Below are positions 21,061-26,344 of a stretch of 64,000 nt of DNA, piece after piece. The stretch is taken from the NCBI GenBank assembly GCA_018509705.1, contig GCA_018509705.1_3630.1; one strand, given 5' to 3'. Numbering within the stretch: the first letter of the stretch is position 1; the number at the start of each line of letters is the position of its first letter. The notes beneath the pieces are model-generated. The model was given only the letters and a program-made list of their open reading frames with translations. It did not search any database and was not told the DNA's origin. A program made the translations under genes and the position numbers. Source of the DNA: a phage.

Positions 21061-21339
21061 ATGAGCTGTGAAAAATCTTTTTTCTTTATTATTTACGGTA
21101 AAGATAACTGCCCACATTGTGTCAGAGCAAAAGAATTTGCAATCAGCAAAGGTCTGCCTTTTGTATATAAGACACTTGGCGAGGGATACACAAAAGAAGA
21201 GCTTATTGAGAAGTGTAGCCCAATCGTGCCCAGAACGTTGCCGCAGATCTTCTTAGAAAGCAATCTTGAAAGTGTCCATATAGGCGGTGCCGACGATTTC
21301 ATCTCTTTTGTTAAGAATGGTTTTGGAGAGAAAAAGTGA
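21061..21339 (+). CDS. Glutaredoxin/NrdH-like redoxin
   Basis: CPHC active site in YGKDNCPHCVRAKEF; 92 aa. Confidence 0.7.
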   Translation: MSCEKSFFFIIYGKDNCPHCVRAKEFAISKGLPFVYKTLGEGYTKEELIEKCSPIVPRTLPQIFLESNLESVHIGGADDFISFVKNGFGEKK

Positions 21340-22199
21340 AAGTTGTAAAACGGGACGGTAGAGAAGAGTTCTATAACGGAATTAAGGTGATCAAGGCGGC
21401 AGAGTCCGCCTTACTTGAGTCTGGACATACTGAAGAAGAAGCTTACCGGATCGCCTGCGCGGTTAATGAAGTTGTTGCTAACAATCTACCAACCGACCAG
21501 TGCACGATCTCTGTAAAAAATATCCATATCCTTGTTGAAGACGCTCTTATGGATATGGGTTTAAAATGTGCAGCCAGAGAATACATCCAGTATAGGCAGA
21601 CAAGAGATAATAACAGAGAGGCAGGTGGAAAACTGCTTGCAGATATTAGTGGCTTCTTGGATCGCACTTGTGATGAATTTACAAAAGAAAACGCAAATAA
21701 GCCTACCAATCATGTACACACTCATCGTGACCTGCTTGCAGGCATTCTTAGCAAACACCTTGCATCAACACAGATCCTGCCAGACCGTGTCTCTGAAGAG
21801 CACAATAAAGGCTTCATCCATGTGCATGATCTTGACTACTTGATCAGTCCGTTAACAAACTGTTGTTTGGTAAATTATCCAGATATGCTGGAAAACGGAT
21901 TCAACATTGGTAACGCTCATGTCAGTAAGCCGAAGTCAATAGGGGTTGCAACAACAATCCTTAGCCAAATCTCTAGTGCGGTAGCTAGTGCTCAATATGG
22001 TGGTCAGACTATGAGCCATATTGATCATTATCTGGCACAGTATGCTGAAGCAACCTATGAGAAGAACCTTAAATTTTGCCAGGAACATTGGTTGCCAGAT
22101 GCTGAGACTGTTGCAATGCAAATGACAGATAAAGACGTATTTGACAGCATGCAGACTTTGCTCTATCAAATCAATACGTTAACTTCTGTCAACGGTTAA
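21336..22199 (+). CDS. nrdD: Anaerobic ribonucleoside-triphosphate reductase, exon 1 (3' boundary approximate)
   Basis: N-terminal ATP-cone MKVVKRDGREEFYNG; frame ends in stop followed by structured non-coding RNA-like sequence. Confidence 0.75.
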   Translation: MKVVKRDGREEFYNGIKVIKAAESALLESGHTEEEAYRIACAVNEVVANNLPTDQCTISVKNIHILVEDALMDMGLKCAAREYIQYRQTRDNNREAGGKLLADISGFLDRTCDEFTKENANKPTNHVHTHRDLLAGILSKHLASTQILPDRVSEEHNKGFIHVHDLDYLISPLTNCCLVNYPDMLENGFNIGNAHVSKPKSIGVATTILSQISSAVASAQYGGQTMSHIDHYLAQYAEATYEKNLKFCQEHWLPDAETVAMQMTDKDVFDSMQTLLYQINTLTSVNG

Positions 22200-22507
22200 C
22201 AAACTGGCCGTTTTAAAACTCTGCTAACCTCAGTATGAGGGGTCAGCTGATCGCTGGCTAACGGGGAACGCTAAGGCGAAAGCTATGCCAATCCCGTGAC
22301 TAGCTTCACAAGGAGTGAGGCGGTTGTAACGACTAACCTTTTGGTGTAGGGATTATGGAAGATTCCGAAACGCAGAGGTCTGATTAAGAATCACACGGTG
22401 TGATTTCAGGCAAGAGATAGTCTGGCCTTGTGGAAACATAAGGGTGGGGACCGCAAACCCCTTTTATCACATTAAGTTTAGGTCTGGACACCTCAGTATT
22501 TGGTAGA
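22200..22507 (+). ncRNA. Putative group I intron 1 in nrdD (boundaries approximate)
   Basis: About 300 nt without ORF between nrdD fragments; AAGAGATAGTC at 22412-22422 matches the group I S element consensus as recalled; GTTGTAACGACTAA resembles the R element. Confidence 0.55.
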
Positions 22508-22762
22508 ATGATTACCAAAAACTACTTGAAAGTCCACAAAATGGGTCTTGGTGAAGAACGTATCACACCTGTGTTCCCTAAAGTGCTGTTCTTCCTAGAA
22601 GAGGGTGTCAACATGAACCCTGGAGATCCTAACTATGATTTGAAACGATTAGCTTTGGAATGCTCTGCAGAGCGGATTTATCCTGACTTTGTTTCTGTTC
22701 CACTAAATCGTAAAGTGACAGGATCGACAGATGGCAAAGTAACGAGCATGGGTAAACTATAA
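22508..22762 (+). CDS. nrdD: Anaerobic ribonucleotide reductase, exon 2 (boundaries approximate)
   Basis: 84-aa ORF in a different frame between two intron-like regions; assigned by position only, not by NrdD motif. Confidence 0.5.
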   Translation: MITKNYLKVHKMGLGEERITPVFPKVLFFLEEGVNMNPGDPNYDLKRLALECSAERIYPDFVSVPLNRKVTGSTDGKVTSMGKL

Positions 22763-23500
22763 CTGCTCATGTAAAATCTATCTAAACGGGGAAACTCCAG
22801 AACGGACAATCCCGTGCTAAACGTAACAGAACTCCTGACCAAGAGGAGTCCTGAAATGAGAAAACAAATTCGTGATTTTGAAGGTTATGAAATTGACGAG
22901 ATGGGCAATGTTTATTGCACCCGCTACGAAAATGAAAGAATTATTCATTCGTGGGAAGAGATAAACACAGGTTACCGTCTTGTTAGGATACGCAAGAACA
23001 AAAAGACTGTTTGCCTAAGGGTTCACAGACTTGTTGCTGAATCGTTCTTACCAAATCCAGACAATTTACCCTATGTTAAGCACAAAGGGGACAACAGGAA
23101 AGATAACAGTGTATACAACCTTGAGTGGGGAGCTTGCCCAGACAATACGCAAGAAGGATACAACAACAACTGTTATGCTTTTTACACAAAATGCCACGGT
23201 GTGAAAGCCACCAACAAATTAACTGGTGAGGTTTTCCACTTTAAAAGTCTGAGATGTTGTGCTGATGTTTTAGGAGTGGATAGAAAAAGAATATCTGCTA
23301 TCCTGAAACGTGGTGCGCCTAATAACTATGATTACGAGTTCTGTTACGAAATGCCTAACGACTAACCGTGATGAATGTAGCGGTGTAGGGTGTAAGCCGA
23401 TGACACTCGAAATGGTAGACACACTAAGTGTGAAGATATAGTCTGATCTGCATGGGAACATGCAGCAGCACGTAAAGGTGCGGGGGTGGACTTGCGAACC
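22763..23500 (+). mobile_element. Putative group I intron 2 in nrdD carrying a homing endonuclease ORF (boundaries approximate)
   Basis: AAGATATAGTC at 23433-23443 is an exact match to the S element consensus as recalled; HNH ORF embedded. Confidence 0.6.
22856..23365 (+). CDS. HNH homing endonuclease (intron-encoded)
   Basis: VHRLVAESF...VKHKGDNRKDNSVYNLEW (HNH_3-like) plus N-terminal EGYEIDEMGNVY motif; ATG at 22856 with AGGAG RBS. Confidence 0.7.
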   Translation: MRKQIRDFEGYEIDEMGNVYCTRYENERIIHSWEEINTGYRLVRIRKNKKTVCLRVHRLVAESFLPNPDNLPYVKHKGDNRKDNSVYNLEWGACPDNTQEGYNNNCYAFYTKCHGVKATNKLTGEVFHFKSLRCCADVLGVDRKRISAILKRGAPNNYDYEFCYEMPND

Positions 23501-24478
23501 ACCCTGAACATAATGTGTAGAAGTTTCTTATCGAAATATAGCGACCCTGTAACAGGCGAGGAGAAATACCTTGGCAGATTTAACTTAGGCGTTGTTAGCC
23601 TTAACCTGCCAATGATTGCGGCAAAAGCTAAAACGGAAGGTGTTGATTTCTTTGCAGTTCTTGACGAATACCTGGATCTTGCATACGAGGCTCACCTTGT
23701 AAGGGTTAACCGTCTAAAAGGAACAAAGGCAGGGCAGAACCCTATCATGTGGTGTGAAGGCGCTCTTGCTCGCCTGGATCCTGAAGAGAGTATTGATAAA
23801 CTCTTCTATGACGGGTACGCTTCCATCAGTATTGGGTATATTGGTGTGTATGAAACCTGTCAGATTTTGGGCAGGGAGGGTGACAAGGCTTTAGCTCTTG
23901 GAATACTACAGCACATGAGAGATGCTTGTGAGCGATACAAGAAGGAAAGTAGACTAGCGTTTAGCTTGTACGGCACTCCTTCTGAGAGTCTATGCTATAA
24001 AGCTGCAACCTGTCTGGATCGTGAATATCCTGAAGTGTTGAAGCACGAGCATGAATATCTCACCAACAGTTTCCATCAGCCAGTATGGATCAATAGCTCT
24101 CCTTTTGATAAGTGGGAGTATGAAGAAGGTTTTGCTATGATATCCTCTGGTGGCAACATCGGATACGTAGAGACACCAAATCTGAAAAACAACTTAGATG
24201 CTTTGGAAGCTCTTGTTGATTTCGGATATAAACACATTATGTATTTTGGTATCAACCAGCCTGTGGATAAATGTCTTAAGTGTGGTTTCTCTGGTGAGTT
24301 CAGTGCAACAGCTAAAGGGTTCTGCTGCCCTGCGTGCGGATGCCACGATGAACAATATATCTCAGTGATCCGAAGAGTGTCTGGATACCTTTCCAGTCCT
24401 AACTCCCGTCCTTACAATAAAGGTAAGCAAGCGGAAGTTATAGAACGGGTTAAGCACTACGGAAGTTGTGGTTGCTGA
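23486..24478 (+). CDS. nrdD: Anaerobic ribonucleotide reductase, exon 3 (5' boundary approximate)
   Basis: Conserved CRSFL and GRFNLGVVSLNLP region, C-terminal zinc site CLKCG...CPACG and glycyl radical motif RRVSGYL. Confidence 0.85.
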   Translation: MDLRTTLNIMCRSFLSKYSDPVTGEEKYLGRFNLGVVSLNLPMIAAKAKTEGVDFFAVLDEYLDLAYEAHLVRVNRLKGTKAGQNPIMWCEGALARLDPEESIDKLFYDGYASISIGYIGVYETCQILGREGDKALALGILQHMRDACERYKKESRLAFSLYGTPSESLCYKAATCLDREYPEVLKHEHEYLTNSFHQPVWINSSPFDKWEYEEGFAMISSGGNIGYVETPNLKNNLDALEALVDFGYKHIMYFGINQPVDKCLKCGFSGEFSATAKGFCCPACGCHDEQYISVIRRVSGYLSSPNSRPYNKGKQAEVIERVKHYGSCGC

Positions 24479-24544: not shown

Positions 24545-25705
24545 GTGAGAAAACTTACAACCGAAGATTTTATAGAGGGGGCGAAAGCAGTTCATGGTGA
24601 TAAATATGATTATTCCAAAGTCAAATATGTGGGTGCACACACCAAGATTGTAATTATATGCCCTGAGCATGGAGAATTTAAGAAAACTCTTGGAGATCAC
24701 CTCCGTAAAAAACAGGGTTGCCCAAAATGTCAGATTGAAGCAGAAAGAGCGGCTTCTGCTGAAAAATTTAAAGCGGAGGCCGAGGCTAAGTATAATTATA
24801 AATATGATTACTCTAAGGTAGAGTATGTAAATGCTAAAACTAAAGTTGTGATTGTTTGTCCTGTTCACGGCGAGTTTGAGCAAAAGCCTGATAACCATCT
24901 CCGCGAGGGGGGTTGCCGTAAGTGTGGAGGAACTGAGAGAAAGACTACTGAAGAGTGGATCGCTGAGGCAAAAGCGCTTCATGGCGATAAGTATGATTAC
25001 TCTCTTGTAAATTATAAAACCGGTAATGATAAAGTGGAGATAATCTGTAATACATGTGGTGCTCACTTCCCACAAAGACCTCATGACCATGCACCAAGTG
25101 GAAAAGGTTGCCCCGAGTGCGGGAAGAAGAAGGTGGCCGAGGTTAGTAGGAAGACGCAGAGAAAGAAAGCATCTGAGGTAGCTAAAAGGTTTGAGGCAAG
25201 AGCCAGAGCTATCCATAAAGATAAATACGATTATTCCAGGGTGGAATATGTTAATAGGGAGACAGAGGTCACTATCATCTGTCCGATTCACGGGGAGTTC
25301 ACACAAAAACCGTTTGTCCACATCAACCAAAAAGCTGGCTGTCAAAAATGTGCTAAAGTCGGCTTCTTATCTCATGAACATGGTAGCCTTTATATCATGG
25401 TTGACGATCTGGAAGTACCAACTATGATGAAAATTGGTGTGAGTGTCCGGGTAGATGAACGAAGAAAAGATGTGTTAAAAAGAGCTAAAAAAGCTGGTGC
25501 TAGATTCTCTGATCTACATGTTATAAAAACTTGGGAAGGAACAACAGACGACATGCAAACTTTAGAAAAAGCTATGCACCAAGCCTTGAGCCAATACAAA
25601 ATCAACTTCACAGAGAAGTTTGATGGCTGTCGAGAGTTCTTCTACTACAGACCGGAGGTGTTCAGCATAGTGGAAGCAGCGTATAAAGAGATCTGCGGTA
25701 AATGA
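24545..25705 (+). CDS. T5orf172/GIY-YIG-like domain protein with four N-terminal tandem Cys/His repeat modules
   Basis: Four repeats of about 60 aa (KYDYSKV.YV...TK..I.CP.HGEF.QKP..H...GC.KC); C-terminal KIGVS...E..H..L...REFF pattern. Confidence 0.55.
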   Translation: MRKLTTEDFIEGAKAVHGDKYDYSKVKYVGAHTKIVIICPEHGEFKKTLGDHLRKKQGCPKCQIEAERAASAEKFKAEAEAKYNYKYDYSKVEYVNAKTKVVIVCPVHGEFEQKPDNHLREGGCRKCGGTERKTTEEWIAEAKALHGDKYDYSLVNYKTGNDKVEIICNTCGAHFPQRPHDHAPSGKGCPECGKKKVAEVSRKTQRKKASEVAKRFEARARAIHKDKYDYSRVEYVNRETEVTIICPIHGEFTQKPFVHINQKAGCQKCAKVGFLSHEHGSLYIMVDDLEVPTMMKIGVSVRVDERRKDVLKRAKKAGARFSDLHVIKTWEGTTDDMQTLEKAMHQALSQYKINFTEKFDGCREFFYYRPEVFSIVEAAYKEICGK

Positions 25706-25757: not shown

Positions 25758-25874
25758 ATGTCTAAAGGTATTTCTAAAATTTGCAAGTGTGGTTGTCGTT
25801 GCAATCTTCGTTGGTGCAAGGCACTAGATGATTTTATTTGGCATTGCCCTAAATGTGATACGGAGTATCTATGA
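25758..25874 (+). CDS. Small Cys-rich zinc-ribbon-like peptide (38 aa)
   Basis: Hand-translated MSKGISKICKCGCRCNLRWCKALDDFIWHCPKCDTEYL; strong RBS AAGGAGG; stop overlaps nrdG start. Confidence 0.5.
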   Translation: MSKGISKICKCGCRCNLRWCKALDDFIWHCPKCDTEYL

Positions 25875-26344
25875 ACATTGTCGGATACACAGAAATATCT
25901 TACACAGAAGGGCCAGGTATTAGAACTGCCTTGTGGGTATCTGGGTGCCCACACGCTTGCCCTGGTTGCTTTAATCAGGCATTTTGGTCAAAAGATAAGG
26001 GGAGGGAGTTCACTGAAGAAGATTTGCAAAAAATCTTGTCAGATTTAGATAACCCGTCTGTGTGCGGTATCTCTCTGCTGGGTGGAGAACCCTTAGCATA
26101 CTATAATGAGCCAGATATTATTAGCCTGATGGAGAAAATTAAGGAAAAATTTGGTGACAAGAAAACTATTCTTGTATATACTGGGTTCACATTTAACCAT
26201 ATCTCTAGTGATGTTCTTAAACTGGCTGATATCATCATTGACGGTAAGTATGTAAAAGATTTACCAACCAAGAAACCGTTCCGAGGCAGTGATAATCAAA
26301 GAATGTTTAAAAAAGTATCAGGCGGTTGGGTTCAGGTAGACTAG
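25871..26344 (+). CDS. nrdG: Anaerobic ribonucleotide reductase activating protein (radical SAM)
   Basis: CPHACPGC radical-SAM cysteine motif; 157 aa. Confidence 0.85.
   Translation: MNIVGYTEISYTEGPGIRTALWVSGCPHACPGCFNQAFWSKDKGREFTEEDLQKILSDLDNPSVCGISLLGGEPLAYYNEPDIISLMEKIKEKFGDKKTILVYTGFTFNHISSDVLKLADIIIDGKYVKDLPTKKPFRGSDNQRMFKKVSGGWVQVD

Follow-up and report, generated by a model that had tools for sequence, protein, structure and literature searches.

A Vequintavirus nrdD gene probably interrupted by two group I introns, one related to the T4 sunY intron and carrying an HNH gene

Does a ribonucleotide reductase gene that lies in three pieces, separated by stop codons, still encode one enzyme? 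The question is raised by a phage contig (NCBI GenBank assembly GCA_018509705.1, contig GCA_018509705.1_3630.1), of which we analyzed a stretch of 64,000 nucleotides (nt), hereafter the window, and in particular the gene nrdD at 21336-24478, a region that matches Vequintavirus (rV5-like) phages of E. coli, the best match being Escherichia phage navn (98.2% over 99% of the query). A sequence-only reading of the window had proposed that two group I introns split nrdD and that the second of them carries an HNH endonuclease gene. The intron-less alleles, the 707-amino-acid frame restored by excision, the U•G pair in helix P1, the terminal G and the supported ribozyme cores described below all bear this proposal out. 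We conclude, with a probability of about 0.9, that the nrdD of this Vequintavirus is a single gene into which two phase-0 group I introns were inserted independently, both of which, from their sequences, would be predicted to splice catalytically in vivo.

Before splicing, NrdD-like open reading frames (ORFs) occupy 21336-22199, 22508-22762 and 23486-24478, covering positions 1-154, 180-263 and 263-562 of the Pfam NRDD profile, with an ATP-cone in the N-terminal ORF (Pfam E=4e-14) and the Pfam Gly_radical domain in the C-terminal one; the gene starts with a GTG at 21336 that overlaps the stop codon of glutaredoxin. These three ORFs, the HNH ORF and two group I motif strings (AAGAGATAGTC at 22412 and AAGATATAGTC at 23433) all lie where the sequence-only reading had put them, and the motif pattern, with one mismatch permitted, has 5 matches in the window versus 1.2 expected by chance. 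In allele alignments, phage phiWec191 is collinear with the window except at 22196-22452, which has no counterpart there, and in phages RudolfGeigy and EmilHeitz nothing corresponds to the block from 22753 to ~23524. Splice sites were set from these intron-less alleles under two constraints, namely that the upstream exon end in U and that the intron close with a G, which places the absent blocks at 22197-22453 in phiWec191 and at 22754-23515 in RudolfGeigy and EmilHeitz, both between codons (phase 0; Table 1). The predicted spliced junctions read GUCAACGGU followed by CAAACCCC (22196 joined to 22454) and GCAUGGGU followed by UGUAGAAG (22753 joined to 23516). The NrdD pieces recognized earlier are thus present, whereas the limits given for them were those of ORFs rather than of exons: since exon 2 starts at 22454, it begins 54 nt before the ATG (22508) from which the middle fragment had been counted. 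The fragments had also been assigned to three frames and in fact use two, because intron 1, being 257 nt long, shifts the frame between exons 1 and 2, and intron 2, at 762 nt (3 x 254), leaves exons 2 and 3 in one frame with stops between them. A stop follows soon after each 5' splice site, GGU being followed by UAA at intron 1 (the UAA is its first three bases) and by AAA CUA UAA at intron 2.

Functionally, the three joined exons amount to 2124 nt and 707 codons with zero internal stops. The product forms one unbroken alignment with T4 NrdD (E=2e-167, residues 103-701 vs 6-604) that runs through both junctions, and its residues 1-703 align to a solved 734-amino-acid NrdD with an ATP-cone. The proposed comparison of the concatenated exons with NrdD, in other words, yields a collinear match that includes the middle fragment. 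Junction 1 falls between Gly287 and Gln288 (Gly190 and Gln191 in T4) and junction 2 between Gly387 and Cys388 (Gly289 and Cys290 in T4), where T4 Cys290 is the finger-loop cysteine that carries the thiyl radical. Gly677 aligns to the glycyl-radical position (T4 580) and zinc cysteines stand at 640/643/658/661, and all features of a class III reductase are present, namely the ATP-cone, the catalytic cysteine, the zinc site, the glycyl-radical motif and a nearby nrdG, the activase gene, which is intact at 25871-26344, downstream of nrdD. As an aside, the nrdD start in the BASEL and phita32 records lies 213 nt downstream of 21336, so that the ATP-cone is omitted there.

Table 1. Coordinates of the nrdD exons, the two introns with their predicted helices, and neighboring genes in the window.
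Feature	Position	Strand	Remarks
nrdD exon 1	21336-22196	+	287 codons; ATP-cone and N-terminal part of NrdD core; last base U22196
Intron 1	22197-22453	+	257-nt group I intron without ORF; terminal G = 22453
Intron 1 P1	22191-96/22207-12	+	AACGGU/GCCGUU, U22196•G22207
Intron 1 P3	22219-24/22372-77	+	
Intron 1 extra hairpins A, B	22228-40, 22242-58	+	between P3 5' strand and P4
Intron 1 P4	22261-66/22292-97	+	
Intron 1 P5/P5a	22270-88	+	GAAA loop
Intron 1 P6a	22303-21	+	
Intron 1 P7	22331-35/22418-22	+	
Intron 1 P7.2	22349-66	+	
Intron 1 P8	22380-22409	+	long
Intron 1 P9	22426-43	+	GAAA loop
nrdD exon 2	22454-22753	+	100 codons, Q288-G387; last base U22753
Intron 2	22754-23515	+	762-nt group I intron, T4 sunY lineage by sequence; terminal G = 23515
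Intron 2 P1	22747-53/22765-71	+	CAUGGGU/GCUCAUG, U22753•G22765
Intron 2 P10	22757-61/23516-20	+	CUAUA/UGUAG
Intron 2 P3	22777-82/23414-19	+	
Intron 2 P4	22786-91/22810-15	+	
Intron 2 P5	22796-22806	+	
Intron 2 P6a	22822-31/23339-48	+	part of 13-nt perfect inverted repeat 22822-34/23336-48
Intron 2 P6b	22831-49	+	
Intron-encoded HNH gene	22856-23365	+	169 amino acids, I-HmuI-like, inside P6a loop of intron 2
Intron 2 P7	23360-64/23439-43	+	
Intron 2 P7.1	23365-84	+	
Intron 2 P7.2	23388-23408	+	
Intron 2 P8	23420-32	+	
Intron 2 P9	23448-65	+	
Intron 2 P9.1	23468-81	+	
Intron 2 P9.2	23484-23504	+	
nrdD exon 3	23516-24478	+	C388 to end; opens with catalytic Cys codon; Zn-ribbon cysteines and Gly677
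Free-standing endonuclease-like gene	24545-25705	+	386 amino acids; outside introns, between nrdD and 38-amino-acid ORF
38-amino-acid ORF	25758-25874		precedes nrdG

Structurally, intron 2 is the better supported of the two, and its sequence and fold place it in the ribozyme lineage of the T4 nrdD intron, sunY (subgroup IA2-type, with P7.1/P7.2 and no P2). Over its opening 100 nt it has 76% identity with the beginning of the sunY intron, every helix can be aligned with those of T4, its core is 65-87% identical to those of T4 sunY and of the introns of phages IME537, phi92 and F100, and the internal guide GCUCAUG is common to them. Covariation was assessed on the ORF-stripped cores of the window, phi92, F100, T4 and the T-even phage IME537, for a structure of ten helices (P1, P3, P4, P5, P6a, P7, P7.1, P7.2, P9 and P9.2): 96.8% of cells are paired and 22 pairs are changed on both sides, compared with only 1-7 such changes in controls with the 3' partners slid by one to three columns, and none of 500 shuffles reached any of five measures. 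Four of the six pairs of P3, the helix that makes the pseudoknot, change; all 5 relatives retain the U•G at the 5' splice site; and P10 covaries with the exon (CUAUA/UGUAG in the window, UUGGCA/UGCCGA in F100). A permissive Rfam scan gave two Intron_gpI matches, one of 29.2 bits (22187-22443) and one of 35.3 bits (23360-23465), with no other match at E<0.01 in the whole window, and BLAST searches with both introns as queries returned no further copies elsewhere in the window. For calibration, T4 sunY reaches 105.3 bits and the copy in phi92, which lacks the ORF, 70.6 bits; the 35.3 bits of intron 2 are due to a 510-nt ORF interrupting its core and not to a defect in the ribozyme.

How close, then, is intron 2 to sunY itself? 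The two sit in the same host gene, T4 sunY being the relative with a core 65% identical to that of the window, and they have in common, besides the guide, an identical P7 and J8/7, P7.1/P7.2 without P2, and an in-frame stop just past the 5' splice site. In contrast to the two phase-0 introns of the window, however, the single intron of T4 splits the codon for Tyr180 (phase 1), with intron 1 lying 32 nt and intron 2 lying 109 codons downstream of that site, and its ORF encodes the GIY-YIG enzyme I-TevII between P9.1 and P9.2, whereas the ORF of the window is of the HNH family and sits in the P6a loop. The sequence-only reading was therefore right that T4 has a single nrdD intron with an endonuclease of a different family, which moreover lies at another site. 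Intron 2 has neither the sunY homing site (T4 Tyr180) nor the I-TevII (GIY-YIG) ORF, and as a mobile element it is related to sunY but distinct from it. We also observed that the intron of IME537, although located at the T4 sunY site, has a core 71% identical to intron 2 (T4's own is 65%) and an identical P7.1, a likeness that hints that T-even phages and rV5-like or phi92-like ones have exchanged parts of their introns.

The HNH gene is interleaved with the ribozyme of intron 2. Its Shine-Dalgarno sequence (AGGAG, 22844-22848) lies within the P6b hairpin, and its last six codons and stop (YEMPND and stop) coincide with the 3' strand of P6a, J6/7 and the 5' strand of P7, a C-terminus also found in the proteins of SD2 and F100. 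The 169-amino-acid product matches PHROG 59 'HNH endonuclease' (E=4e-31), aligns from end to end with I-HmuI (PDB 1U3E, E of only 1e-7), and falls below the Pfam cutoffs for HNH_3 (19.1 vs 24.8) and I-HmuI_NUMOD-like (20 vs 27). I-HmuI, the nicking enzyme of the SPO1 DNA polymerase intron, is likewise encoded in a phage intron and is collinear with it (174 vs 169 amino acids, an HNH core followed by a C-terminal NUMOD-like DNA-binding helix), and differs in its host gene, in its position within the intron and in having an Asp where the window has a Lys. Evolutionarily, the gene and its SD2 copy (88.8% amino-acid identity) differ with a synonymous divergence (pS) of 0.61 and a ratio of nonsynonymous to synonymous divergence (pN/pS) of 0.089; because of this low ratio the protein is under purifying selection, which argues for a functional protein; its endonuclease activity and target site are predictions. 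Separately, the 13-nt repeat of P6a and the P6b hairpin, which holds the Shine-Dalgarno sequence, compete for bases 22831-22834, and this choice of pairing could tie the folding of the ribozyme to translation of the endonuclease, as has been suggested for introns of T4.

Intron 1 is a different case, as its common ground with the sunY lineage is limited to generic core motifs. An unconstrained minimum-energy fold recovers all its core helices except the P7 pseudoknot (z=-3.54). P7.1 has just 2 base pairs (bp). A sister version, carried by EmilHeitz, FV3, phita32 and others, is 87% identical over the first 141 nt and has a gene for a 177-amino-acid HNH protein in P8; between EmilHeitz and the window, compensatory changes occur in P3 (CUCUGC/GCAGAG to CUCUCC/GGAGAG), hairpin B, P6a and P9. 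Between P3 and P4 this intron has two additional hairpins, and it is this insertion that forces a mismatched P3 on the Rfam model and explains the score of 29.2 bits. For an insertion at this place, the one precedent that turned up is yeast aI5beta, in which it is termed non-canonical (PMC2396411), and a literature search for a named P3.1/P3.2 element yielded nothing specific. A pattern scan of IMG/VR, in turn, recovered 42 loci with the P4-P5 core of intron 1, and many of these introns keep the two-hairpin order with P3 strands that differ and yet are complementary; such a covarying P3 in many metagenomic relatives speaks for the two-hairpin order as a family trait and not decay. Other comparisons were less informative: when intron 1 was aligned by MAFFT with distantly related introns that lack an ORF, the register was lost from P6 to P8, and single-sequence minimum-energy folds of intron 1 and relatives recovered the short P3 in only 2 of 6. 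At the 3' splice site we noted a hairpin in which intron GGGG (22446-22449) pairs with exon CCCC (22458-22461); in the sister allele that bears a homing endonuclease gene (HEG) it reads GGAG/CUCC, with both sides altered and the exon changes synonymous. This may be a real helix or linked co-converted variation, and represents one event only.

How widespread are these elements? The spliced exons, used as a query, match 121 phage records, and we classified by span an evenly spaced sample of these, comprising 58 records with a complete gene. Half of them (29/58) are intron-less, V5/rV5 included; 4/58 have intron 1 only, 16/58 intron 1 with its HEG, 6/58 intron 2 only, 1/58 both introns as in the window, and 2/58 both introns with both HEGs. 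At least seven deposited genomes have both introns (navn, 241Ecol014PP, A135, A147, phita32, C2 and JEP1), and four of these (navn, A135, A147 and 241Ecol014PP) carry the arrangement of intron 1 plus intron 2 at 96-98% identity; the free-standing endonuclease gene that follows nrdD in navn differs from that of the window. Elements identical to those of the window are found in the BASEL phages RudolfGeigy and EmilHeitz and in navn, phita32, JEP1 and 241Ecol014PP. The rV5 paper mentions introns only in the terminase gene, which is consistent with an intron-less nrdD in rV5. In terms of annotation, most depositors give separate coding sequences (navn_79/80/82; nrdD_1/2/3), with 'NrdD' in two or three fragments alongside a hypothetical protein. 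Single introns have nevertheless been annotated as spliced already, in phi92 (a 'spliced variant' join) and in the BASEL phages (an intron 1 join, with or without HEG), and no record that we examined annotates both introns as spliced. A literature search found no paper on Vequintavirus or phi92 nrdD introns. With at least seven such genomes, two intervening sequences in the nrdD of F100 and single introns already annotated as spliced, the suggestion that a twin-intron gene is a novel configuration was overstated. One oddity among the matches is a group of ~20 'Campylobacter phage' records (GenBank MG0656xx, host C. jejuni) that are 95-97% identical to E. coli Vequintavirus at this locus, have no annotation, and look mislabelled or like coliphage contaminants.

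The exon flanking intron 2 carries a further trace of mobility. An intron-2-less allele (rV5 or RudolfGeigy) reads ATGGGT followed by TGCCGGAGTTTTC across the insertion site, and the intron-2-minus Vequintavirus alleles read TGCCGGAGTTTTCTTAGC at the 3' flank; the intron-2-plus flank is TGTAGAAGTTTC, and exon 3 opens with TGTAGAAGTTTCTT in all intron-2-plus alleles, both in Vequintavirus and in Justusliebigvirus (phi92 and SD2), despite the fact that the NrdD of phi92/SD2 is only about 63-69% identical to that of the window. Such a common 3'-exon tract is the pattern that co-conversion during homing would be expected to leave, and the tract also supplies the P10 partner.

Relatives of intron 2 outside Vequintavirus sit at the same Gly-Cys site. 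Phi92 has a 279-nt copy with 86.5% core identity, its ORF having been lost or never present, and SD2 has the same intron with the HNH gene; unlike in the window, the NrdD of both lacks the ATP-cone, and intron 1 is absent. Vibrio phage F100 has a sunY-type intron with a related HNH gene at Gly-Cys, and its nrdD contains a second, HNH-endonuclease-bearing intervening sequence at the window-equivalent Gly222/Gly223, whose status as an intron is putative. Counting the latter, sequence comparison gives four nrdD insertion sites across these phages, and the sunY lineage is at two of the four with the same guide and 5' exons AUGAGU and AUGGGU. A common guide and similar 5' exons would be compatible with guide-directed reverse splicing, without proving it. 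Beyond nrdD, Staphylococcus phage Twort has twin group I introns beside conserved catalytic residues of nrdE, one of them encoding an HNH endonuclease (Landthaler et al. 2002, cited in PMC3653736). Unlike the nrdD of the window, the Twort gene is a class Ib nrdE in a phage of Gram-positive hosts, and its splicing has been shown by experiment, whereas that of the window is predicted.

Mechanistically, we posit that each intron would fold into its group I core after transcription, and that exogenous guanosine would then attack after the U of the P1 U•G, at U22196 and U22753. The freed 5' exon would in turn attack after the terminal G, at G22453 and G23515, and the ligated mRNA would encode a 707-amino-acid class III ribonucleotide reductase. 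The HNH enzyme of intron 2 would most likely nick or cut the intron-less nrdD of co-infecting phages, with repair copying in intron 2 plus a short stretch of the 3' exon (homing).

Several observations weigh against a twice-spliced nrdD. At the gathering score of Rfam RF00028 (Intron_gpI), 50 bits, a search of the whole window found no family, both introns included, so that the Rfam check advised by the sequence-only reading gave only the sub-threshold matches reported above, one at each intron. The order P1-P3-hairpin A-hairpin B-UAA-P4 in intron 1 is non-canonical, and Rfam's own alignment of this intron imposes a different, mismatched P3. The formal covariation count covers intron 2, the case for intron 1 being built on one diverged sister allele and on metagenomic relatives; as the P3 scan of the latter picked partners for their complementarity, it is partly circular and supportive only. 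The catalytic His of the HNH protein is preceded by a Lys (VKHK), at the place where I-HmuI has a metal-binding Asp (VDHK), and endonuclease activity can therefore not be taken for granted. Aerobic laboratory growth does not require NrdD, and a poorly splicing intron could therefore persist. Lastly, a literature search found no RNA or biochemical evidence of splicing for either intron in any Vequintavirus.

Do these points favor another explanation? Three were considered, and all are unlikely because the frame is restored exactly, the exons are conserved, and both cores are kept through compensatory changes. The one that survives best, which we still consider improbable, is that only intron 2 is functional, and that intron 1 is a degenerate, splicing-defective relic that has lost its ORF. 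The low Rfam score with its mismatched P3, the missing ORF and the 2-bp P7.1 would be in keeping with such a relic, yet the 257-nt form is at least 99% conserved in 14 records with all its helices intact, and the arrangement of two hairpins and a covarying P3 is common to many metagenomic relatives. Moreover, the 5' exon ends in U in all intron-1-plus alleles examined and in G in phiWec191, the sole intron-1-minus allele read there.

A second explanation, to which we give quite little credence, is that the inserts are non-splicing endonuclease cassettes and that the NrdD fragments are translated separately and assemble into an active enzyme. Aeromonas phage Aeh1 offers a precedent, its nrdA, split by mobE, being translated as separate fragments that make an active enzyme. 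Non-splicing HNH 'introns' have also been reported in the related phage CB7 (PMC7344957), and the ATG at 22508 could start a middle fragment. That start, however, would leave out 18 codons of conserved NrdD that lie upstream of it in exon 2, the boundary of exon 3 has neither a start codon nor a ribosome-binding site, and intron 1 encodes no endonuclease. Nor would separate translation explain why a complete ribozyme core, U•G and terminal G have been kept in both inserts through compensatory changes if splicing were irrelevant.

Hardest of all to sustain is a decaying nrdD pseudogene with insertions and frameshifts and no full-length NrdD, as the separate coding sequences of most depositors and the aerobic dispensability of the enzyme might suggest, given that excision of two exact blocks yields a stop-free 707-codon ORF with Cys388, Gly677 and the zinc cysteines, that the exons are 93-97% identical to uninterrupted alleles with zero indels, that nrdG is intact, and that the inserts have group I structure with covariation. 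An intein was rejected, the inserts being out of frame or full of stops, as was a group II intron, no such structure being present.

A nrdD gene with two spliced group I introns is a further example of a well-known class of phage mobile elements, and leaves general knowledge of group I introns and homing endonucleases unchanged. If it is true, Vequintavirus nrdD, with all six states circulating, would be a natural system in which to observe the homing cycle, and the ~120 closely related genomes that segregate every combination of intron and endonuclease would be material for studies of gain, loss and co-conversion. The exact splice coordinates permit a correct join annotation of the 707-amino-acid enzyme, which is now mostly deposited as fragments. 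The nrdD insertion sites extend beyond the single one of T4, with one exactly at the catalytic cysteine codon, and one ribozyme lineage, sunY, is found in three endonuclease states (GIY-YIG, HNH and none). A larger scenario, tentative and in our judgment rather doubtful as a whole, is that the sunY lineage switched its site from Tyr180 to Gly289/Cys290 while keeping the guide GCUCAUG, captured an HNH gene in P6a and crossed genera with a co-converted tract, and that intron 1 represents a widespread phage lineage of non-canonical order.

Downstream of nrdD, the product of the free-standing endonuclease-like gene (Table 1) has four repeated Zn-ribbon modules (DUF723/DUF4379) and a T5orf172/MUG113 GIY-YIG-like domain, and matches PHROG 681 (Pfam, PHROG). 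The gene is missing in RudolfGeigy, differs from the ORF at that place in navn, and has just two matches at >99%, those in SophiaRose and in O157 typing phage 14; given such patchy matches, the nrd locus of the window is a mosaic that is not matched by any single record. In T4, mobC sits likewise between nrdD and nrdG.

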